In this document: in pieces, positions 2,022-37,686 of the stretch
Layout: every line of letters starts with the position of its first letter
How positions within the stretch are numbered: the stretch's first letter is position 1
DNA from: a virus
Taxonomy: Duplodnaviria > Caudoviricetes
IMG/VR virus record: IMGVR_UViG_3300020042_002525
Span: 1 to 37,686 of that record
Length of the DNA stretch: 37,686 nt
Reading direction: 5' to 3' (one strand)
Notes under the pieces: model-generated
Seen by the model: the letters and a program-made list of their open reading frames with translations, nothing else
Database searches by the model: none
What the model was told of the DNA's origin: nothing
Position numbers and translations under genes: made by a program

Positions 2022-2419
2022 GTAAACATATTAGTTACAGCGAAGCGACTACAAGTCCTACAGGTTTACGATTAGGTATCGATAACACTCCTAATAGTGT
2101 TGAGTTAAAAGCTATGCTATTGGTAGCAGATAAATGCTTTGAGCCTTTAAGAGAATGGTATGGAAAGCCTATTAAGATTAACAGCTTCTATAGATGTAAG
2201 GCTTTGAATACTGCTGTCGGTGGTTCGGCTACAAGCGACCATATTAATGGCTGTAGTATAGACCTTACAGGAGGTAACAAAGAGGAAAACGAAAAGTTAT
2301 TTAATTGGGCAAAAGATAATTTAGAATTTGACCAGTTAATAAATGAGTATGACTTTACATGGGTGCATATTAGTTACAGAGCAAGTGGTAATCGTAAACA
2401 AATAAAAGTAATTAAATGA
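2015..2419 (+). CDS. Endolysin, peptidase M15A-type Zn peptidase
   Basis: INSFYRC..LN.AVGGSATSDH..G..ID and WVHIS Zn-ligand motifs. Confidence 0.88.
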   Translation: MVSKHISYSEATTSPTGLRLGIDNTPNSVELKAMLLVADKCFEPLREWYGKPIKINSFYRCKALNTAVGGSATSDHINGCSIDLTGGNKEENEKLFNWAKDNLEFDQLINEYDFTWVHISYRASGNRKQIKVIK

Positions 2420-2916
2420 TAACACTTGCAGGTATAGCTGCTAAATTTACAGCAGCCAAAGGCTCAGACCTTATTAAAAATGTTAGCGAAGCAGTTGACA
2501 AGTTTGTTGATACCAAAGCTGAGAAAGCAGAACGTGACATTAAGTTACAAGAGATGGTTAACAACTACAACTTAGAGTTAACTAAGTTAGCAAACGAAAG
2601 CGACAAACAATTTTTAGCTGACATTCAAAATAGCAGAGATGCAAACGTTAAGATACAAGAGAGCGACAAGTCTTCATGGTTAGCTAAGAACGTTGGTTAC
2701 ATATTAGACTTGTTCTTAGGTGTTATTTGGGGTGCAGTTACTGCTTTCATAGTAGCTAAAGCACTTAAGTTAGCTGGCGATAATATAGATATGACTGCTG
2801 TACTTTCTATTTATGGAACTATAACAGCTGTATTCATGATGACTATGAGTTTCCATAGAGGTACTTCAAAAGGTAGTGAAGATAAATCAAAAGAACTTAG
2901 GAACTATAGAAAATAA
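2416..2916 (+). CDS. Holin-like membrane protein (GTA 3TM holin-like)
   Basis: N-terminal coiled coil, C-terminal hydrophobic helices and a GTSKGS..K tail; follows the endolysin. Confidence 0.6.
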   Translation: MITLAGIAAKFTAAKGSDLIKNVSEAVDKFVDTKAEKAERDIKLQEMVNNYNLELTKLANESDKQFLADIQNSRDANVKIQESDKSSWLAKNVGYILDLFLGVIWGAVTAFIVAKALKLAGDNIDMTAVLSIYGTITAVFMMTMSFHRGTSKGSEDKSKELRNYRK

Positions 2917-2920
2917 TATT

Positions 2921-2928
2921 TATATTTG
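2921..2928 (+). promoter_or_regulatory. Bacteroidota sigma70 -7 element (TATATTTG)
   Basis: Exact TAnnTTTG match; no ORF follows, only ~65 nt and a terminator. Confidence 0.5.
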
Positions 2929-2932
2929 CGTG

Positions 2933-3000
2933 TCCTTTTGGATAGGTTTATTTTGGTTAATAAATGTTAGCTACTGATTTAAAAGTCAGTAGCTTTTTTA
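2933..3000 (+). ncRNA. Candidate antisense small RNA
   Basis: Lies between a -7 element and an intrinsic terminator; stem TTTATT/AATAAA (2947-2964) with loop TTGGTT complementary to AACCAA in early-gene leaders. Confidence 0.42.
2969..2999 (+). terminator. Intrinsic terminator ending the lysis operon/sRNA
   Basis: AGCTACTGA...TCAGTAGCT stem followed by a T-run; located between convergent genes. Confidence 0.85.
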
Positions 3001-3228
3001 TTTGTTAAACATTCTATAAGTTAACTCAGCAAACACACTTACAAGACTTGCGATAAACACATCGCCATACATTATAAAGCCTATCCAAAAGCCACTACAT
3101 AAAGCGCAATCTAATAACCTACGAAGCATACCAGTAATAAATAATTTATCCTTTACCCATTCAATAGGTTCGTTAACTACGAATAGATAACTAAAGCAGA
3201 CTACTCCTGCGAATTTAATAAGTTCCAT
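2998..3228 (-). CDS. Small membrane protein with CxxC (DUF1360-like)
   Basis: Hydrophobic 76 aa; LLDCALCSGFW motif. Confidence 0.6.
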   Translation of the reverse strand: MELIKFAGVVCFSYLFVVNEPIEWVKDKLFITGMLRRLLDCALCSGFWIGFIMYGDVFIASLVSVFAELTYRMFNK

Positions 3229-3680
3229 TGTTCTTTTAATTTGTTTCTAATCTTTTCTACATCCCTCCAAATCATACTATAAGTTAGCTTAACCTTTAAC
3301 TCACTAATAATTGTAGGTATCTTCTTACGTTCTACATAGTACAAGGTGTATAATGTTAGTTCGTATTTGTTTAATATCTTTAAGTCAACATCGCAACTAA
3401 CAAACTCGCACTCTTCCTGTATTACATCTAAGTCAATATCTGTTAGTTGCTCTTTGCTGTTATTCTCTTTGGCTATCTCGCTGTTATTCCAACTGCAAGA
3501 CTGGTAAATATATCTTACACAATAAGCCTCTAAGTTCTTAATATCTTTAGCCTCCAATAAGTGTAAGTATAGCAGACTGATAATCGCTTCAGGTTCGTAT
3601 CGTTTGCCTGACTTAAATATAGCAGTCCTTGCTATACTAACTAACTTAGAGTAGTTTTGAGATATGTAAGTATTAACCAA
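3201..3680 (-). CDS. ECF-sigma-factor-like protein (probable late sigma)
   Basis: Region-2-like N-terminus (YSKLVSIAR...EAIISLLYLHLL) and region-4-like HTH (LYYVERKKIPTIISEL...IWRDVEKIRNKLK); TTG start. Confidence 0.6.
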   Translation of the reverse strand: MVNTYISQNYSKLVSIARTAIFKSGKRYEPEAIISLLYLHLLEAKDIKNLEAYCVRYIYQSCSWNNSEIAKENNSKEQLTDIDLDVIQEECEFVSCDVDLKILNKYELTLYTLYYVERKKIPTIISELKVKLTYSMIWRDVEKIRNKLKEQWNLLNSQE

Positions 3681-4449
3681 TTAAGTCAATTATATTAGCT
3701 ACTTGCGTAGTGCTATAAATCCTTTCCTCACTACCTGCTAACAAAGCCTTACCATTAATCTTAAAATCGTTGTAATGGTCTTCTAACTTTTCGATTCTGT
3801 TTTTAAAGTTAGCGTTTGCAGAACTATTAAGTAACTTAGTTCTTATCTCATTACGCACATAGCTGAGGTGGTGCATGGTTAACTCTAACCTACTAAACTC
3901 ATGTACAACTTTACAAGGTACTTTGCGAGTTGGATCGGCTAACAAGTTCCATTTAGTAGACAGCGTATAGTTAGCGTGTGTAATCTTATGAATGAAAGGT
4001 ACATAGTATTCCTCTGCTGGTGTTATAATGCAGTTAGGGTACTTATAATAGGTCTTCATTTTACAAGCAGTAGCTTCTATATCATTACTACTAATTATCT
4101 TTTTAGCCTTATCAAACTCAGCTTTTAGATATAACTCATCGCAATCTATATTAAGATGATGCGTGTAGCCTGTATTCCTTGCGTAGTTTAAACCTAAGTT
4201 ACGCTTTGCTAATTCGTTTTGGTGCGGTGTTTTTTTGAAGTCGGTATCGTAATGAATGATAACATCGATAAGACCTTGTACTTGTAAGGCTTCTAATACT
4301 TTAGCGGTATTAACTTCGCTTTCGTTACCATGATTAGATACGTTCTGCCATACTACAATAATACAATCTACTGAGTTACGAATAGATTTAAGAGAGTGAG
4401 GCAAAAGTTCTAAGCCATCGAAAGCATTATAGGCTGCTGATAGTTTCAT
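3673..4449 (-). CDS. Glycosyltransferase, GT-A fold (GT2-like)
   Basis: LPHSLKSIR..VDCIIVV, KRNLGL, IDCDE (DxD) and MHHLSYVR motifs. Confidence 0.8.
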   Translation of the reverse strand: MKLSAAYNAFDGLELLPHSLKSIRNSVDCIIVVWQNVSNHGNESEVNTAKVLEALQVQGLIDVIIHYDTDFKKTPHQNELAKRNLGLNYARNTGYTHHLNIDCDELYLKAEFDKAKKIISSNDIEATACKMKTYYKYPNCIITPAEEYYVPFIHKITHANYTLSTKWNLLADPTRKVPCKVVHEFSRLELTMHHLSYVRNEIRTKLLNSSANANFKNRIEKLEDHYNDFKINGKALLAGSEERIYSTTQVANIIDLIG

Positions 4450-4574
4450 TTAGTTTGGTACCACATTTCTCCTGTAGCTGGGTTTATAACTGTAAACACT
4501 TTTGTAATACCTTTCAAACTATCGGTTACATTCTCTACAATTAGTTTATCTTTTTGTTCTTGTGTAATTATCAT
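4446..4574 (-). CDS. 42-aa hypothetical protein not in the ORF track
   Basis: MIITQEQKDKLIVENVTDSLKGITKVFTVINPATGEMWYQTK*; TAATG overlap upstream and ATGA overlap downstream. Confidence 0.7.
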   Translation of the reverse strand: MIITQEQKDKLIVENVTDSLKGITKVFTVINPATGEMWYQTK

Positions 4575-5176
4575 TACTTCTTAGGATAAATATAAATAAT
4601 ACCACGTTTAGCACCTGTAGCCTCTGAGTTATACTCAACTACATACTTATCTTTGCCATAGATAGTTTCAATACTTGAAGCAATCCACTCCCAGTTATAA
4701 ACAATATCTTTGTAAACATCGAAGCCTAACTCAGGGTGGTTTGGAACTACGAAGTCATGAATAGCGATAACAGGTTTTAAGTTATGCTTAGCGATAATAG
4801 CTAACTCATTTAATAATGGGTTGTGTGCTAACCAATGAGCATCTAAAAAGCAAAAGATATTACTTTTGTTAGGTGCCTTTGGGTTAATCTCAGCTAACAA
4901 AGTATCTAACACTACATCGCTACTACCTTTGTGTAAGGTTACATTTGGAGTACCTGAAAGGTTGTTAAATGCGTGAGCGTAGTTCTCATCGTTAATCTCA
5001 ATAGTATGTACTTGCTTAGCCATTGTAGCTAACTGCTTAGTAGTACCACCTTTGTAAGTACCAGTTTCGTAAATGGTATGTACTTTAAATTGTGTACATA
5101 AGTCTGTAAACTTTTGCTTTGCAAATGTGTCGCCTTCAAAGCCTAAGGCGTTCTGTTTTAAGTAGTCTGTATTCAT
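4574..5176 (-). CDS. Class I SAM-dependent methyltransferase (Methyltransf_24-like)
   Basis: YETGTYKGGT motif I, TIEI, HKGSSD, FLDAH and IAIHDF. Confidence 0.82.
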   Translation of the reverse strand: MNTDYLKQNALGFEGDTFAKQKFTDLCTQFKVHTIYETGTYKGGTTKQLATMAKQVHTIEINDENYAHAFNNLSGTPNVTLHKGSSDVVLDTLLAEINPKAPNKSNIFCFLDAHWLAHNPLLNELAIIAKHNLKPVIAIHDFVVPNHPELGFDVYKDIVYNWEWIASSIETIYGKDKYVVEYNSEATGAKRGIIYIYPKK

Positions 5177-5187
5177 ATATTTAGTTA

Positions 5188-5817
5188 TTAATTTTCAGCA
5201 AATAAGCACTCGTTGCAAGGAGGATAAATCTTAAATATTTCCTCCCTCCAATTTTCGCACAAAGGTATATTTTTTTTAGTAGGTAAACCTGACGAACTTG
5301 AACAAGGATAAATCATACCATCGACAAACTCAACCGTATCTGAGTGACCTCTAAAGCACATTTTAGTACCTCGTTTAGATAAGTCATCATGTATAACTTT
5401 AGCTGAGTAAATCTCTTTGTTAGGGTACAACTCTCTTATAAATTCTATCTCACTTGTGTTATCGGGACTGCCTACAAAAGTATCTTTAGTATAGTTAGTA
5501 ATATGTATTTGGTCGAAGTGTTGCCATACTTCAGGCTTCTTTCTAAACATAGTACCATTAGTCCATACAGTTAAACTTTCACACTCAAATAGTTCTTTGA
5601 ACTTAGGCACAAACTCTTCAAATTTAGGGTGTACCGATGGCTCGCCTCCTGTTAAATTTATTCTCTTAACACCTTTAAAGTATACAGCAGAGTTAACGTA
5701 GTAGTCCCAACTATAGAACGACTTCATAGACTTAGGTAATGCTGTAATACCAGCGCAACAATTAGGACACTTCATATTACAATGAGTAGTAAAAGAATAG
5801 TTAATGCAGTTAATCAT
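5188..5817 (-). CDS. Radical SAM enzyme with Cys-rich (twitch/SPASM-like) C-terminus
   Basis: CNMKCPNC (CxxxCxxC), LTGGEP, WTNG; C-terminal KMCF...DGMIYPC...PLC...CNEC. Confidence 0.9.
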   Translation of the reverse strand: MINCINYSFTTHCNMKCPNCCAGITALPKSMKSFYSWDYYVNSAVYFKGVKRINLTGGEPSVHPKFEEFVPKFKELFECESLTVWTNGTMFRKKPEVWQHFDQIHITNYTKDTFVGSPDNTSEIEFIRELYPNKEIYSAKVIHDDLSKRGTKMCFRGHSDTVEFVDGMIYPCSSSSGLPTKKNIPLCENWREEIFKIYPPCNECLFAEN

Positions 5818-6494
5818 AACCCTTTCATTTTAAATATTGTTTTATCTGTTATAGTATGTTCCTGACCAACGTAGGCTAAATGAATTGTATTACTTATTAA
5901 TTTAGCACCAGTAAAGTAAGCAGCTAAAGTTAGTCCGCTTTGGTCTTGTCGATGAAATAAAAAGCGTTTATCTTCGCTTTGGTTATCGTGCTCTCGTGAA
6001 CCTTTAAATACTCCCTCCAGTGCAAACTGAGCAAAAAGACTTCCTATATCTTCACCAAAACTATTAAGATTTAACCCAAAAATACAACTCCAAACTTCGT
6101 GAATAGTTTCTGCTGCGTTCCTTGATATACCAACTATATCTAAAGCCTTATCACTTATCGTTTGTGCGCCGTTATAACCACTATCAATTAAGTAGTAACC
6201 TTTATTTTCTATTATATCGAATATAGGTTGTGGGTGCTGATGTAACCAAACAGAACAATCTAACCAAAGTATTTGTTCGTACCCTAACTTCTTAGCTTCA
6301 AATATTGCAGCAGCTTTAATTGTATAGGGACAATCACTTTTATAATAATCGTTTATAGTTGTATCACTAAAAAAAAGAGTATCACCAGTATAACCTACAT
6401 CGATTAAAGATTGTTTTAATCTTTGTTGACCCTCAGCATACCAGCTTGCGCCTCCTATGTATGCGTTTACTATTACTTGTTTACTTGATGCCAT
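5814..6494 (-). CDS. Nucleotide-diphospho-sugar transferase-like protein (GT-A)
   Basis: IKAAAI...ILWLDCS and HRQDQS motifs resemble GT8/GT34/GT77/DUF1647-type GT-A proteins. Confidence 0.6.
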   Translation of the reverse strand: MASSKQVIVNAYIGGASWYAEGQQRLKQSLIDVGYTGDTLFFSDTTINDYYKSDCPYTIKAAAIFEAKKLGYEQILWLDCSVWLHQHPQPIFDIIENKGYYLIDSGYNGAQTISDKALDIVGISRNAAETIHEVWSCIFGLNLNSFGEDIGSLFAQFALEGVFKGSREHDNQSEDKRFLFHRQDQSGLTLAAYFTGAKLISNTIHLAYVGQEHTITDKTIFKMKGL

Positions 6495-7068
6495 ACTTTG
6501 CTTTATGTGGTTGTTTATTAGTGTAGTTGTAGTGGAATAAAGGCTCGCTAATATAATTACTTTTTGTCAATATAGGGTTAAGCCTATCGGAATAATCTTT
6601 ATCCTCCCCATAACGCATATCTTTAAATCCTGCCTGTAACGCTTTGCTTCTTAGTACTGGGTTAAAGTGTATAATAGGGCGGTAATAAGTAAACGCTTCG
6701 TAACTCTTAGCATCTCTCCAAACTTCGCCAAACTTATGGCACCACGTTTGAGGGTTATCGCCATTAGTGGTCATCGTTCCGTTAATACCGATGCAGTCTA
6801 TACCATCGCTAATAGCGTTAAGGATAAGCTGGCAATAGTTATGCGCTGGCAAGTCATCATCATCAAAGAATACTATCCATTCGCCTTGCGCTTTCTCTAA
6901 TAGTTGCTGTCTTTTTTTACCTATTGACATCTCTTTGTTATCGCAAATTACAACTACTTCTACTTCGTCTAATTGGTTGTAGCTTATTTCGTAGTTAAAC
7001 TTTTCTAACAACTTACTAAACTGCTCAGAGCGTTCTATTACAGTTGCTATTAGTATGGATAGTTTCAT
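6481..7068 (-). CDS. Glycosyltransferase family 2
   Basis: LSILIAT, IGKKRQ, FFDDDD, GEDKDY. Confidence 0.88.
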   Translation of the reverse strand: MKLSILIATVIERSEQFSKLLEKFNYEISYNQLDEVEVVVICDNKEMSIGKKRQQLLEKAQGEWIVFFDDDDLPAHNYCQLILNAISDGIDCIGINGTMTTNGDNPQTWCHKFGEVWRDAKSYEAFTYYRPIIHFNPVLRSKALQAGFKDMRYGEDKDYSDRLNPILTKSNYISEPLFHYNYTNKQPHKAKYGIK

Positions 7069-7751
7069 AGTTTAGCTTTTAACCATGCGATGTGACCTTT
7101 AGCATGTTGGTTTAACTTAAAGTTGTTTGGGTAGTTGGTACGAACCAAGTCTAAGTATAACTTTTCGCCTTGATCCCACGTTGCGTTATTCTTTGCATTA
7201 ATAGCATCGTTACCTGTTACATGGGTAAAGTGTGGAAACACAATGTCATTACGAACTATTAGCCTACCTTCTAAGTCTGCTACATGAGTAAGCCAAGTGT
7301 CGCAAAACATGTGCTTAAACTCAGGGTAATAAATGTAATTGAACTGCTTGTAGTATTCCCAATCCATTATAGGTAAGGTAACAATCCAATGTTGAGTAGT
7401 ATCGAAAGTCTTTAGGACAAAATTTGTCCTATTACCTATAACGTTTAATAACGTTTCATCCCAATGCAAGGGACAATCGAAGTCATCGCTTATCACTACA
7501 ACGATGTCAAAGGTTAAAGACTTAGCAGCGTTGTTAATAGCTTCTACTGCATTAGAGTTAACGCCTATTAACATGCTTTCGCCATCGAAGTGCTTACGAT
7601 AGTCAGGTAGTTGGTCTGCTTCAATGCTTAACCAGTAGCTAAGTAAGTGAGGCTTCTTTGCTTTGCTAAGCCATTTGTGCATGGTCTTACTTGCAAGTTC
7701 TGCTCTGCCTCGTGAGGGGTGTATTAGTGTTATGTTACGCATAAAATCCAT
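7065..7751 (-). CDS. Glycosyltransferase family 2-like
   Basis: LIHPSRGR, AINNAA, VISDDF, HMFCD. Confidence 0.78.
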   Translation of the reverse strand: MDFMRNITLIHPSRGRAELASKTMHKWLSKAKKPHLLSYWLSIEADQLPDYRKHFDGESMLIGVNSNAVEAINNAAKSLTFDIVVVISDDFDCPLHWDETLLNVIGNRTNFVLKTFDTTQHWIVTLPIMDWEYYKQFNYIYYPEFKHMFCDTWLTHVADLEGRLIVRNDIVFPHFTHVTGNDAINAKNNATWDQGEKLYLDLVRTNYPNNFKLNQHAKGHIAWLKAKL

Positions 7752-8337
7752 TCGTTAATTTATTAAAATATTCTTTAGTTATCTTTTTGTCCCAGTTAAA
7801 GTGCGCCTTGTGTCCTGCCCCAACTGTTACACCATCGCCATGCTTAATACCAATAGCACCAATAGCAGGTATAGCCTTAAATGTTTTAGCCTTGCTTATC
7901 TCTAAGTCAATAAATGGAGAGCAACTCAGTTGCATGTTAAGCACTTCTTTAGTAAGCAACATCGACATCATGCTACTTCTATTCGGGTGCTTCATAACTC
8001 TAATACCTAAGCTATTAATGTGTATGTATATCGTTTCGTCTTGACCAAATAAAGCAGGGTTACCTAATCTATTCCATTCGTTAACTAATGTTTCGCAATA
8101 GTCAGCAGGGTAGTAGTCGTCATCTTCAAAGACAATAGCGTAGTCGTAATCTCTTTCTCTAAACACCTCATCAAATAGCCAAAAGTATCGCTCTGCTATA
8201 TCGTTAACTTTTGTTTCAGGTGGATAGTTGCAAATAAGATGTCCTAACTGCAACGTTTGATACGCAACCATGCGCTTACAACGTTCTAACCATTGCGGTC
8301 TATCGCCTCGTGTTGGTGTTATAATGCAGCCTACCAT
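7735..8337 (-). CDS. Glycosyltransferase family 2-like
   Basis: IITPTRGDR..WL...YQT and VFEDDDYYP motifs. Confidence 0.78.
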   Translation of the reverse strand: MVGCIITPTRGDRPQWLERCKRMVAYQTLQLGHLICNYPPETKVNDIAERYFWLFDEVFRERDYDYAIVFEDDDYYPADYCETLVNEWNRLGNPALFGQDETIYIHINSLGIRVMKHPNRSSMMSMLLTKEVLNMQLSCSPFIDLEISKAKTFKAIPAIGAIGIKHGDGVTVGAGHKAHFNWDKKITKEYFNKLTNGFYA

Positions 8338-8864
8338 TGTACTTTGCTATTAGGATTCATTTGTACTAACTCAACTCCTGCTTTCTGCATACTTGCGTTA
8401 AGTCCTTTGAAGTCTTTGTTTATTCTTTCTACTGCGTGGCTTGCATGATGTGTAATCATATCTACACCATACAACTCTATACGCTTTGCACCCATATAAT
8501 ATGCTATAACGCAACCTACAAACGGACTTATAATTGATTTGTTTAATCGGTTGTAATCGTTAAGCTGGTAGTCGTTTCGTTCTCTAAAACCTACATGTAC
8601 TAACGGACTATTTACAGGTATGTTACGATGTGAGAATACACACGTTGTATTCGTTTGCGCAATAGTTTGCCACCTATTACCACCAAAGCTATGAGGCATA
8701 TCAAGGCATACCAAGTAAGTTGGACTATAATAAAAAGCAACATCATTAACTCCAATGGTAGTACCTTTATTTTCTTTAGGAGTAAACAAATGAATACTTT
8801 CGCCACAACCAAGCACGCTGATAGTTTCGCCTTCATGTATATTAATGTAGTCTTTAAATTCCAT
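8331..8864 (-). CDS. Maf/DUF115- or sialyltransferase-like (GT29/GT42-type) protein
   Basis: VLGCGES, IGVND, YLVCLD and AYYMGAKRIELYGVDM pattern. Confidence 0.65.
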   Translation of the reverse strand: MEFKDYINIHEGETISVLGCGESIHLFTPKENKGTTIGVNDVAFYYSPTYLVCLDMPHSFGGNRWQTIAQTNTTCVFSHRNIPVNSPLVHVGFRERNDYQLNDYNRLNKSIISPFVGCVIAYYMGAKRIELYGVDMITHHASHAVERINKDFKGLNASMQKAGVELVQMNPNSKVQW

Positions 8865-9177: not shown

Positions 9178-9211
9178 TTTGTTGTTAATTAAAATATTCG
9201 TTGTACATTTG
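9178..9211 (+). promoter_or_regulatory. Rightward early promoter
   Basis: TTTG/TTG at 9178-9184 and TACATTTG at 9204-9211. Confidence 0.7.
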
Positions 9212-9236
9212 TATAAATTAATTAACCAAAATTAAA

Positions 9237-9461
9237 ATGATTACTCAAAAAATAAAACAACACGAAACAGCAATCGAACTGTTACAAGCTATTGATCACT
9301 TCAATATAATGAAGCGACATACAAACGATTCAATAAAAGGTTCAGCTTCTTATTTTCCTGAACTTGTAAAAAAATACAACCATGACTTAATAATATACAC
9401 GATGTGTATTAGCAGATTAGAAAACAGATATAATAAATCAATTAATCAAATAACCAAATAA
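9237..9461 (+). CDS. Hypothetical early protein
   Basis: 74 aa; first gene after the promoter; A-rich leader. Confidence 0.65.
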   Translation: MITQKIKQHETAIELLQAIDHFNIMKRHTNDSIKGSASYFPELVKKYNHDLIIYTMCISRLENRYNKSINQITK

Positions 9462-9464
9462 CTT

Positions 9465-9707
9465 ATGAAACTAACTAACCTACTTACAGCAATCAAAGAA
9501 TTGTTAATGCCTACTAAGGCAATGCCACTTACAGATAAATGGCTAGAGCAAAACAAAAAAGAACTACGCAAAAAGATGTACGAAGTTGAGCCACCAGTTA
9601 AAGTGTGGAGTACATTCAATCCTATTGAGCGTAACTCTAACAGACCTACATGGTTAAGCAAATTAAACAACGGTCAAGTAACTAACCAATTTAAAACTAA
9701 GAAATAA
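9465..9707 (+). CDS. Hypothetical early protein
   Basis: 80 aa; tight operon packing. Confidence 0.65.
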   Translation: MKLTNLLTAIKELLMPTKAMPLTDKWLEQNKKELRKKMYEVEPPVKVWSTFNPIERNSNRPTWLSKLNNGQVTNQFKTKK

Positions 9708-9868
9708 TGAGCAACGAAAACGCAATGGACATAGCAGTTAAAGCTATCTTTGAAGTAATGAATAACAAGTATAACGATGAGATTAAGACTTTAGAGTTTG
9801 AGATGATACTTATGAAGTACGAAGCAGCAGTTATAACCAAAAAAATCGAAGCACATGAGTTACAATAG
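9707..9868 (+). CDS. 53-aa hypothetical protein not in the ORF track
   Basis: MSNENAMDIAVKAIFEVMNNKYNDEIKTLEFEMILMKYEAAVITKKIEAHELQ*; TAATG overlap; fills the gap. Confidence 0.65.
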   Translation: MSNENAMDIAVKAIFEVMNNKYNDEIKTLEFEMILMKYEAAVITKKIEAHELQ

Positions 9869-10319
9869 ATTCAAGTTCTCGCCACTTAAAGGCGATGTGA
9901 GGCTTCAATCGTTGGATGTTATTGGTTCTATTGTAGCAGATAAGTACAACATAAGTTTGGACTTACTTAAGTCTAAGACGAGAGTACAAAACATTAAAGA
10001 GGCAAGGCAGATAGCTGTTTACATCGCTTGTGGATTAACGAAGTTTACAATAGCTTCTATTGGAGAACATTACAATATACACCATGCAACTGTTATACAT
10101 AGTAGAAAGACTATTAAAAACTTATGCGATACTGAGCCAGCATTAAAGCTGTTAGTCGATGACTTAATTGTAGAATGTAAGCACAACCTTACACTGGATA
10201 GGGAGGAAACGCATGACAAATTTAAGCACACCATACACTTAGATAGTAGTAAGGCTTTGATACTTATAGGATTTAATACTAAAGAAATAGAAGTATTTAA
10301 AGTGCATAATAGTTTGTAA
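9855..10319 (+). CDS. DnaA domain IV (C-terminal HTH) protein
   Basis: ARQIAVY...IGEHYNIHHATVIHS matches the DnaA RQIAMYL...IG..F.RDHTTV.HA signature; no AAA+ domain. Confidence 0.8.
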   Translation: MSYNRFKFSPLKGDVRLQSLDVIGSIVADKYNISLDLLKSKTRVQNIKEARQIAVYIACGLTKFTIASIGEHYNIHHATVIHSRKTIKNLCDTEPALKLLVDDLIVECKHNLTLDREETHDKFKHTIHLDSSKALILIGFNTKEIEVFKVHNSL

Positions 10320-10343
10320 TTATTAAAATATATTTTAACTTTG
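10313..10343 (+). promoter_or_regulatory. Consensus Bacteroidota sigma70 promoter
   Basis: TTTG (10313-10316)-N19-TAACTTTG (10336-10343). Confidence 0.75.
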
Positions 10344-10364
10344 CATTAACCAAATAAATAAACT

Positions 10365-10877
10365 ATGGAACCAATTATTAACGAAAAGAATATCTACACT
10401 CAGTTACTTGAGTTTCAAAAGCTGGATATATCTATTAAAAAGAATGCGCTTAACCCTCACTTTAAAAAGAACTATGCAGACCTTAACGAGGTATTGGATA
10501 AAGTAAAAAAACCTTTGTTAGAGTTAGGTGTAATTATTATCTTTAAGCCACAACCTACATGCTTAGAAACTATTCTATTCCATGTTGAGAGTTTAACTTG
10601 GATTAATTCTATCATGACTTACATCGATATCGCAAACGCTCAAAAGTTACTTGCATGTAATACTTACTTTAGACGTGGTAGTTTAGTTAGCTTACTATCT
10701 TTAGAAGACGACGACGACGATGGTAACAAAGCAGTTGAGGTAGTTAAGCCAGCAATGACTGCCGAACAACTTGACAAAGCTAAGTTAGCTATAGTTACCA
10801 AAGCAGTTACAATAGAACAAGTGAAACTTAAATATAAATTAACCAAAGAACAGGAGAACTTTTTATGTCAGATTTAA
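10365..10877 (+). CDS. ERF-family ssDNA annealing protein
   Basis: KKNALNPHFKKNYADL and TYFRR.SL..LL.L.DDDDDGN. Confidence 0.85.
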   Translation: MEPIINEKNIYTQLLEFQKLDISIKKNALNPHFKKNYADLNEVLDKVKKPLLELGVIIIFKPQPTCLETILFHVESLTWINSIMTYIDIANAQKLLACNTYFRRGSLVSLLSLEDDDDDGNKAVEVVKPAMTAEQLDKAKLAIVTKAVTIEQVKLKYKLTKEQENFLCQI

Positions 10878-12572: not shown

Positions 12573-12602
12573 AATTTAAAATTAACCAAATAAATACAAA
12601 CT

Positions 12603-15697: not shown

Positions 15698-16660
15698 ATG
15701 AAAGGTTTTAAGATAATAGAGTTTGCAGATGTTGAGCAGGACTTATACTCCTACCATAAGTACGGTGCTAAGAAAGGTGTTTATGTTGGCTTCGATGCTT
15801 TCGATGGGTTCTATAATATGAAAGAAAGCGGTTGCACAGATTGGACTGGCTTACCTCAGTCAGGTAAGACTGAACTATTATTAGAGTTATTGTTTAACGC
15901 TTCTGAGTTCTATGGCTGGAAGCACTTGCTTTATGTACCTGACATTGGAGATAGTATTGAGGTTATGTGTGCGCTTATTCATAAGTATACCGGTAAGACT
16001 TTTGATAAGCAATATAAGAACTACATCGATATTAAAGAAGCATTTAAGGCTTGCGACTGGTTACTACAACACTTCTTTATATTGGAAAGGATAGATCCAA
16101 AAGCTACTATAACTCCTATTCAATTTTGGGACTATGCTATTAACTTTAAAAAAACTCATGGTATTCATACTGCAACTATTGATAGTTGGAAAGACTTATA
16201 CCATCCTTACTCTGAGTATGGTGGTAACTATGCTATGTACTTATCTAACGTGCTACCTATTCGCAACATGTTAAGTGAGCAACACAACATACACTTTCAC
16301 ACTATTATACACCCTAAGACACCTCGCAGAGATAAGAATGGTAAACTACACCATCCACAAACAGATGATATGGAAGGAGGAGCGCAATGGAATAATAGCG
16401 GTAAATCAATTATAAGCGTACATCGTGAGAGTTACGATAATACCATAGCAGACATACAAATACTAAAGGCTAAGCCTAAGATAGTTGGTAAGCGTGGCAT
16501 GTTATCGCTTAACTTTGATATTGTTTTGAGTAGGTATTACGAAACTTATCCAAGCGGACATAAAATGTATTCACATAGAGAAACTAAAATAGACTTAAAT
16601 GAAAGACGAAACACAGACTTTTTACCAAGAACTGATGAAGGTAATGACACACCCTTCTGA
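15698..16660 (+). CDS. SF4/DnaB-like replicative helicase
   Basis: Walker A GLPQSGKT, TIDSW, IIHP, GGAQW, QILKAK. Confidence 0.78.
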   Translation: MKGFKIIEFADVEQDLYSYHKYGAKKGVYVGFDAFDGFYNMKESGCTDWTGLPQSGKTELLLELLFNASEFYGWKHLLYVPDIGDSIEVMCALIHKYTGKTFDKQYKNYIDIKEAFKACDWLLQHFFILERIDPKATITPIQFWDYAINFKKTHGIHTATIDSWKDLYHPYSEYGGNYAMYLSNVLPIRNMLSEQHNIHFHTIIHPKTPRRDKNGKLHHPQTDDMEGGAQWNNSGKSIISVHRESYDNTIADIQILKAKPKIVGKRGMLSLNFDIVLSRYYETYPSGHKMYSHRETKIDLNERRNTDFLPRTDEGNDTPF

Positions 16661-36218: not shown

Positions 36219-36619
36219 TGATTACAATAAACAAAGGACAAACAAACGAAGTGTCGGTTACGTTAAATGAAAAAATAACGATAACTAACCCTTCGTTTGT
36301 CTTTGTATTTACAAACGATACTACAGGAACTACAAAAACGTTTACAGCTACCGATACCAGCTTAACACCTGTTAGATTTAATCGCTTTAGCATAATAGAG
36401 AATGTAACAGAAGATGTATACAACGGTACAATAAGCCTAACTAATCAAGGTTTTTGGAGTTATAGCATTTATGAAACACCTTACGCAAGTCCGATAGATT
36501 TAACAGACTTAGGAGCAGAGTTAGAAAGTGGCAAAGTAAAAGTAATAGGTAACGATGTAGTAGATAACATTGAGTTCGATAGTGATTATACTTCGGACAA
36601 TGTAATATTTGAGCCATGA
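36218..36619 (+). CDS. Hypothetical virion protein (head closure-like)
   Basis: 133 aa, beta-rich; coupled to the portal gene by ATGA. Confidence 0.55.
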   Translation: MITINKGQTNEVSVTLNEKITITNPSFVFVFTNDTTGTTKTFTATDTSLTPVRFNRFSIIENVTEDVYNGTISLTNQGFWSYSIYETPYASPIDLTDLGAELESGKVKVIGNDVVDNIEFDSDYTSDNVIFEP

Positions 36620-37686
36620 AACTAAACGACATTAAAGACTTCTTTAAAAAGGAGCCTGTTAACTTATCGATGGCAGAAACTGCAAGCGTTAGTAAGTTTA
36701 ATAGAATAGAACTACCAAAGATTACAGAGGTTAAGAGCAAAGACTGGGTAAGTTATGGAGTTAATAACATGTACCCGAATGAGTTGATGGCTTTAACATC
36801 TACAAGTGCAATCCATAACGCTATTATTAAAACTAAGTCGATGCTACAAGCAGGCTCAGATATATTAATAGAAGGAACTGCAACACTTGAAGGTAGTGAG
36901 GAATATATTAAGTCTTTACCACTTAACGAAAGTATAAAGTTAAGAAGGCAGATAAAACAATTCGATAAAGTTCGCCATAACTTAGCAGCAGACTTCCAAA
37001 CATTTGGAGCGTATGCTTACGAAGTAATTTATTCAGTAGACTTTAAAAACATTTTAGAGATTAACCACGTAAACGTATCGCTTATAAGAAGCGGTAAGCT
37101 AAACGAAGATGGCAATGTAGAAGAGTATTACTATTCTCGTAACTGGCTTAATACAATGAATAACAAACCACAACGCATAGCAGCATTTGACTTGACAAAC
37201 AAAACAGATGCAAGGCAGTTGGTTTACAGATTTAACTATTCTCCTGAGCAGGAGTATTACGGAATACCTACTTACCAAAGTGCGTTAAGTTGGATTAAAT
37301 TAGATAGTGAGATAGGTTTGTTTCACTTATCTAATATTGAGAATGGCTTCTTTCCATCGTTACACATGGCTTACTTTAAGTTACCAAGTAGCAACGAAGA
37401 GAAACAAACTATCTTAAACATGCAAAAACAGCAGTTTAAAGGAGCAGATAAAGCTGGTAAGGTAATTACAACATTTAGCGATGGTAAAGACTTAGCTGCT
37501 GAGATTAACCCTATACAAGTTAGCGACTTAGATAAACAATTTATTCTAATAGGAGAAAGTTGTGTACAACAAATCATTAGTGCGCATCGAGTTACTTCGC
37601 CTATGTTATTAGGTATAGCAACCAGCGGAAAGTTAGGATACTCAAATGAGTTGGAGAATGCGTTTAAGATATTTGAAAAGACAGTA
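36515..37686 (+). repeat. Right copy of imperfect terminal direct repeat
   Basis: Matches 1-1172 at ~95% identity. Confidence 0.97.
36616..37686 (+). CDS. Portal protein, second allele, truncated by the window end
   Basis: Open frame colinear with 102-1172; mostly synonymous differences. Confidence 0.9.
   Translation, partial: MKLNDIKDFFKKEPVNLSMAETASVSKFNRIELPKITEVKSKDWVSYGVNNMYPNELMALTSTSAIHNAIIKTKSMLQAGSDILIEGTATLEGSEEYIKSLPLNESIKLRRQIKQFDKVRHNLAADFQTFGAYAYEVIYSVDFKNILEINHVNVSLIRSGKLNEDGNVEEYYYSRNWLNTMNNKPQRIAAFDLTNKTDARQLVYRFNYSPEQEYYGIPTYQSALSWIKLDSEIGLFHLSNIENGFFPSLHMAYFKLPSSNEEKQTILNMQKQQFKGADKAGKVITTFSDGKDLAAEINPIQVSDLDKQFILIGESCVQQIISAHRVTSPMLLGIATSGKLGYSNELENAFKIFEKTV

Follow-up and report, generated by a model that had tools for sequence, protein, structure and literature searches.

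In phage T4, the proteins RegA and RegB shut off early mRNAs through a leader feature common to many genes. The P4 CI RNA is a phage RNA that acts in trans on the phage's own mRNA with its pairing bases placed in loops, and kissing-loop RNAs of the CopA type are cis-encoded and fully complementary to their target, with a YUNR motif in an exposed, conserved loop. To our knowledge, ribosomes of Bacteroidota do not use Shine-Dalgarno pairing, and little is known about the timing of gene expression in their phages.

The closest described systems are two small RNAs, FopS of Bacteroides (RF04319) and GibS of B. thetaiotaomicron (RF04182). Both bind mRNAs close to the start codon and thereby repress them (PMC11697453, PMC7366714), the GibS host does not use Shine-Dalgarno sequences, and TAnnTTTG is the Bacteroidota -7 consensus (PMC7366714); the authors of the FopS report noted a copy in one phage (PMC11697453). 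In a literature search that covered subscription journals thinly, we found no description of a phage RNA directed against the phage's own early leaders in Bacteroidota. Here we describe a locus in a viral DNA of 37,686 nucleotides (hereafter, the window), which probably encodes a FopS-like, host-derived anti-leader RNA that has been adapted to turn down early genes of the phage itself.

Genome and gene layout

Positions 36515-37686 of the window are a 95% copy of positions 1-1172, so that the genome is about 36.5 kb long; this inexact terminal repeat may represent two strains in the assembly. Matches to PHROGs and Pfam identified portal, endolysin, terminase, tail, ERF annealase, SSB, helicase and HTH repressor-like genes, and no integrase was found with either database among the 50 ORFs scanned. 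The TAnnTTTG promoters, the A-rich leaders and the relatives of the portal, one of which is in a Flavobacterium bin and another in Nonlabens phage P12024S, suggest that the host is likely a member of Bacteroidota. Genes of the window were labeled early or late from gene order together with PHROGs and Pfam matches.

The leftward block (2998-8864, - strand, about 6 kb) encodes two glycosyltransferases, a radical SAM protein and several unknown genes, and its role is possibly DNA or surface modification. It is headed by the HTH repressor-like gene (9063-8854, - strand), the start of which is probably ATG 9063. A second TATATTTG promoter (9075-9068, - strand) lies 4 nt ahead of this ATG; the repressor-like mRNA would therefore be leaderless and beyond the reach of an anti-leader RNA.

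A promoter-to-terminator unit between two operons

In the element at 2921-2999, a Bacteroidota -7 promoter is followed by a short non-coding body and then by a terminator. The element is a real feature, placed between the end of the late/lysis operon and the end of the leftward operon:

2416..2916, + strand: upstream gene, likely lysis/holin, after the endolysin (phrog_1544, function unknown)
2897-2900, + strand: imperfect -33 element (TTAG), 20 nt upstream of the -7 element
2921..2928, + strand: -7 promoter element TATATTTG, a sequence match to the consensus TAnnTTTG
2932..2943, + strand: short 5' hairpin predicted by folding
2933..2999, + strand: predicted small RNA of about 67 nt
2950..2961, + strand: 12-nt seed, complementary to ATTAACCAAAAT, its core TTGGTT in the loop of an A/U hairpin (2947-2964)
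2969..2999, + strand: intrinsic terminator, 11-pair stem (hairpin 2969-2994) with a T run to 2999
2998..3228, - strand: final gene of the convergent leftward operon

The coordinates of promoter, hairpin, terminator and leader motif in a preliminary description of this DNA were all confirmed on recheck. Using a detector that looks for TAnnTTTG followed, after 20-87 nt, by a hairpin and a T run, we found no other promoter-to-terminator unit in the genome. Because the Rfam 5' end of FopS loci lies 4 nt after the promoter, the start of the window RNA is placed near 2933. The terminator, which faces the leftward operon, is common to the RNA and the late/lysis operon, and the terminator list has no entry between the 2416-2916 gene and the unit. 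No gene starts opposite the unit, the predicted targets being 6-14 kb away, and Rfam contains no meaningful match for it. Among sequencing runs, no RNA run was listed as containing this DNA, and the only DNA run checked had no coverage at 2776-3169. Leftward read-through past the terminator, which has a poor T run on the - strand, would yield a perfect antisense of 2917-2968 that could titrate the small RNA; the same convergent layout is seen in G007.

When folded from the likely starts at 2930-2935, the RNA is predicted to form a small 5' hairpin, the A/U hairpin (TTTATT 2947-2952, loop TTGGTT 2953-2958, AATAAA 2959-2964) and the terminator; the A/U hairpin has a probability of 0.86-0.94 with its loop open. 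The objection that this hairpin is too weak (-2.7 kcal/mol on its own) was dropped after folding from these starts. A fold begun at 2921 is predicted to lack it. From the seed, pairing with a leader is predicted to be able to continue 5' as far as about 2943, approaching the start codon.

An ordinary terminator between convergent operons, joined by accident to a promoter match and a U/G-rich spacer, might produce the same picture in an AT-rich genome. We consider this improbable. Among 20000 shuffles of the 52-nt spacer, 2014 contained the promoter match alone and 666 the seed alone, in agreement with such a coincidence, but both occurred in order in only 31. The RNA body is also 71% T+G, a level reached by only 0.8% of 858 sense leaders.

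The leader motif and its complementarity to the RNA

The preliminary description reported the motif complementary to the seed upstream of six early start codons and a weaker copy at 9683. All seven copies were found, and duplex prediction added a possible eighth target:

9221..9232, + strand: target of the first early gene (ATG 9237), 3' of promoter TACATTTG (9204-9211)
9451..9458, + strand: target before ATG 9465, by complementarity and predicted duplex
9683..9689, + strand: weaker target before ATG 9707, on the same grounds
9834..9842, + strand: target of a gene like the DnaA C-terminal HTH (ATG 9855), on the same grounds
10345..10354, + strand: target of the ERF annealase (ATG 10365), 3' of promoter TAACTTTG (10336-10343)
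10838..10847, + strand: target before ATG 10865, by complementarity and predicted duplex
12581..12590, + strand: target of the helicase-methyltransferase gene (ATG 12603), on the same grounds
16582..16597, + strand: possible eighth target (putative start 16599), 16 contiguous predicted pairs, three of them G-U

Within positions -35 to -1, TAACCAA is present in seven of the 16 early genes, where it is the top 7-mer, and in none of the 35 others (0/12 in the leftward operon, 0/23 among structural/lysis genes; Fisher p = 1e-4). Both the enrichment, which had been set as a test, and the absence of the motif from structural-gene leaders were thus upheld. Copies inside ORFs, against which the preliminary description had cautioned, do exist (24834, 32365). 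Seven of the 15 sense-strand copies fall in leaders, although leaders account for only 4% of the sequence (binomial p = 9e-7); these seven begin 14-25 nt ahead of the ATG. The 9-mer complement of ATTAACCAA has one copy on the other strand, inside the 2921-2999 element.

Predicted binding energies, with opening costs included, average -7.8 kcal/mol for early leaders and -4.8 kcal/mol for the others (p = 0.0015), and the top seven leaders are all early. The early-minus-other gap was equaled by none of 120 body shuffles, the early mean alone by six of 120, and as many early leaders as with the real RNA were matched in 124 of 5000 shuffles. The leader of 16599 lacks TAACCAA, yet its predicted binding energy is the best of all 51 leaders; in the ERF annealase leader the predicted duplex extends to the start codon. 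Overall, predicted duplexes span roughly -25 to -1 of the early leaders and take in positions -12/-13 and -6/-3, where adenines promote initiation in F. johnsoniae (PMC6847099). As the RNA is complementary to a motif before seven early genes, one RNA would likely lower their translation together.

TAACCAA could also be a protein site, used either by a phage HTH repressor on DNA or by a host RNA-binding or initiation factor. In that case the complementary stretch would be the remnant of an inverted copy, or a further site of this type, and have no role in pairing. An HTH repressor-like gene does face the early operon, and RbpB binds A/U-rich leader sequences in Bacteroides (PMC11697453). We give this explanation only a small chance: all seven leader copies are non-palindromic, on the sense strand and tied to start codons, while only two adjoin a promoter, and the remnant of an inversion would not retain the promoter and terminator, along with matching seeds, in phages with portals 28-43% identical.

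Units and seeds in related phages

Relatives were compared through portal homologues at 28-43% identity, none with flanking DNA exceeding 45% portal identity. The closest homologues (portal 76% identical, 159-aa gene 63% identical) have their flanking DNA outside the comparison. Neither a single-portal scan nor an alignment scan with the 159-aa gene gave close relatives, a lysis-gene scan for them gave three loci, all without a unit at the gene end, and blastn of 2300-3300 against phages gave two matches, both due to chance; Flavobacterium phage FL-1, a blast match, has no unit after its lysin.

Among 160 loci of the portal relatives we found U/G-rich units with nine distinct bodies. Units are present in three of 12 near-complete records of the first relative set and in eight of 21 records of the second (4/17 among records fetched blind); in most relatives of both sets no unit was found. 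The cultured Nonlabens phage P12024S has an unannotated unit directly after its holin, at about 10186-10246 of its record, and L250 has one directly after its endolysin, so that in both the unit lies behind lysis genes, as in the window. A relaxed search gave few further candidates, and the promoter together with TTTTGGTT was found in none of 20 further records. In a pattern scan, 11 of at least 121 rows among the matches listed had a terminator, the window itself being one, and records with a terminator showed no excess of TAACCAAA over control.

These data bear on both sides of a chance origin: most relatives lack the unit, and the minus-strand units of G016, G018, G021 and G024 could each be a reversed hairpin plus an A/C-rich leader, but units on the same strand with no gene starting opposite are found repeatedly, in P12024S, L250, L211 and the G108 clade. 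The seeds differ among relatives, and they match an early leader of their own phage over 12 nt in P12024S, 13 nt in G021, 16 nt in G018, 11 nt in L211 and 17 nt in G007.

We compared the seed of each RNA with the leaders of its own and of the other phages in a matrix. Left out beforehand were G015 and G008 (near copies of the G018 and G007 units), G040 and L165 (T+G above 0.6, yet dissimilar from the rest), L148, L215 and L230 (covered only in part), L554, L621, L622 and L664 (contigs without early genes), G121 and the second G110 unit (T+G under 0.6), as well as leaders overlapping a unit by at least 22 nt. The cognate excess for 12 phages had p = 2e-4. Since four of these (G002, G003, G005 and G007, from the pattern scan) share the window's seed by selection, the eight portal-found phages were tested separately, with 21 of 40320 permutations reaching the observed excess (p about 5e-4); for six phages, one per clade (clades judged by eye), it was 7 of 720. 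With early leaders only, p was 5e-5, and late leaders were negative; without the window, p was 1e-4. Of 206 early leaders 43 had a match of at least 9 nt, compared with 8 of 297 late ones; the early and late labels of this first set had been given by hand once match lengths for several phages were already known. On the window's own leaders, the window RNA takes only 6th place among the 12, because other phages share its seed, and the G016 RNA ranks last on its own leaders.

The second set of eight alone was not significant (p = 0.054 for all leaders, 0.11 for early ones; matches 20/226 vs 6/131, p = 0.10); six of its eight units have one seed in common, and the G110 unit leans to late leaders (4/18 late vs 2/33 early). 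Pooling 16 phages gave p = 2e-5 on early leaders, or 3e-5 without the window. Seed-leader matching across relatives, which the preliminary description had named as a check, is therefore clear in the first set and weak in the second. Its central proposal, a trans antisense RNA acting at early leaders, is favored by motif enrichment, duplex energies and the first relatives, the second set adding little.

The mode of contact is a different matter. In nine of 11 relatives folded, the matching stretch is predicted to be single-stranded (mean unpaired probability 0.63-0.97), as in FopS and GibS, and several relatives have a predicted 5' hairpin of differing sequence ahead of the seed. Thus, the U-turn loop noted earlier is predicted to be open in the window RNA but appears particular to that copy, and a CopA-like kissing loop is not a feature of the family.

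Other small units were seen in these phages. There are two per genome in L703 (G121) and in L680 and L681 (G110), and one G121 unit matches four of its own leaders by an identical 10 nt. A second conserved promoter-to-terminator unit, which is not U/G-rich, lies directly before the portal region in one phage clade (L181:6379, L168, L175, L183, L193 and L203). Finally, the unit at L128:13819-13853 lies antisense, in cis, to the leader of a gene for a small membrane protein that follows the endolysin, and hence might delay lysis too.

The motif and similar units in Flavobacterium

In the genus around the Flavobacterium bin, the search pattern was present in 24 of 61 genomes, and many of the 30 host loci returned are susC leaders with the window's motif (SusC identity confirmed). 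These leaders contain ATTAACCAAAAT, a 12-nt match equal to the best phage leader. Three loci (L448, L471 and L472) were read as promoter-seed-terminator units on Flavobacterium chromosomes, and two of them passed the detector. Several copies of such a unit, which has no Rfam match, lie on chromosomes of this genus (G083, G088), and it is likely a FopS counterpart. As judged by sequence, RNA type and address are both present in hosts and tied to envelope and transport genes, as with FopS. The preliminary description, which placed the targets among early genes, had overlooked both the susC leaders and the chromosomal units.

Because susC leaders have the same motif, host transporters are a real rival target. 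The RNA would then be genuine, with host mRNAs (susC/TonB-dependent transporters, outer-membrane proteins) as its main targets, likely blocking superinfection or redirecting uptake, as FopS does, and the early genes would merely copy host leader style. Besides the observations above, true FopS copies in about 69 of 119 viral loci (gut phages) are in line with this explanation, as are the seven sampled motif leaders of G053, which include two full SusC genes, one outer-membrane barrel and one solute symporter; a rule for signal peptides, applied to the host genes with the motif, gave no enrichment. On the other hand, the motif is found in only eight of 659 sampled host leaders and hence is not a general leader feature, compared to seven of 16 early leaders in the window. 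The cognate excess is found in early leaders only, late ones showing none or a deficit; host style alone is insufficient for this pattern, and matches of 16-17 nt to single own leaders also argue against it. Overall, we regard host mRNAs as unlikely main targets, and favor the phage's own early genes.

Proposed role of the RNA

From the unit, the motif enrichment, their complementarity and the similar self-matching units in relatives, we infer the following course of transcription, pairing in the cell, repression and timing. The 2921-2999 element likely makes a predicted 67-base RNA that would pair with the TAACCAA leaders of seven or eight early genes and likely block ribosome loading there. 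Host RNA polymerase would transcribe it from the start of infection through a housekeeping promoter, late read-through from the lysis operon into the shared terminator would add seed-bearing RNA, and the RNA level would rise with time. Pairing would mask the A-rich stretch around -12, which serves initiation in Flavobacterium, so that synthesis of early recombination and replication proteins would first be limited and later stopped. Probably the phage acquired this type of RNA from FopS/GibS-like RNAs of its host and adjusted it to its own leaders; susC leaders of the host may be secondary partners.

A broader generalization, which we put forward tentatively and with less than even confidence, is that an anti-leader RNA of host type has become, in Bacteroidota phages, a master switch that works by address: each phage has its own address before early genes, absent from late leaders, and an RNA with the matching seed. 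Such an RNA might set the moment of the switch from early to late genes or maintain a carrier state without an integrase, might protect against other phages that have this address, and could also silence host SusC receptors. Since the cultured phage P12024S has a named host strain, Persicivirga (Nonlabens) sp. IMCC12024, and an unannotated unit at the same position, the idea lends itself to bench experiments. Bacteroidota genetics might also gain a tool from a short programmable repressor of this kind.

Comparison with known RNAs and regulators

The FopS model gave no match in 2880-3030 at E-values up to 10 (gathering cut-off 56 bits), whereas gut-phage FopS copies used as positive controls scored 67-79 bits (three loci checked against Rfam). 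Gut-phage copies (L285, L290, L292 and related) are on the strand opposite to the neighboring gene block where inspected. FopS (PMC11697453) resembles the window RNA in its canonical TAnnTTTG promoter, its length of about 70 nt, a U/G-rich seed and then a Rho-independent terminator; GGTTAATAAA is identical in both, letter for letter, pairing is predicted at translation starts, and susC leaders are complementary to both. The window RNA differs in having GAT instead of the CAT anti-start triplet, in being single-copy and in its seed, which is predicted to lie in a loop (P 0.86-0.94), whereas the 5' seed of FopS is single-stranded. Its best-supported targets are the phage's own early genes, while nine true-FopS gut phage loci match their own leaders within 10 kb over only 7-10 nt.

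GibS shares trans action, an A/U-rich seed and targets in initiation regions, but it is, as described (PMC7366714), a 145-nt RNA with two seeds, a non-canonical promoter and chromosomal metabolic targets; its model (RF04182, 115 bits) had no match at the window element, a unit of only about 67 nt. Thus, the window RNA would work like FopS and GibS but is a member of neither family.

As proposed here for the window RNA, the c4 antisense RNA of P1/P7 acts in trans on its own phage's mRNA in the vicinity of the ribosome binding site, and the bases that pair lie in loops; it serves immunity through a single antirepressor operon (PMC12197685), whereas the window seed would address a motif of seven to eight genes. 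There was no Rfam match to P1 c4 or P4 CI at the window element. The predicted open loop UUGGUU has the YUNR motif of the CopA type, but loop presentation is not kept among relatives and the targets are in trans. If the proposed role is correct, the window RNA would be a multi-gene extension of c4-type control, and one RNA silencing the early block via a shared leader address would be the RNA counterpart of protein shut-off factors such as RegA and RegB of T4.
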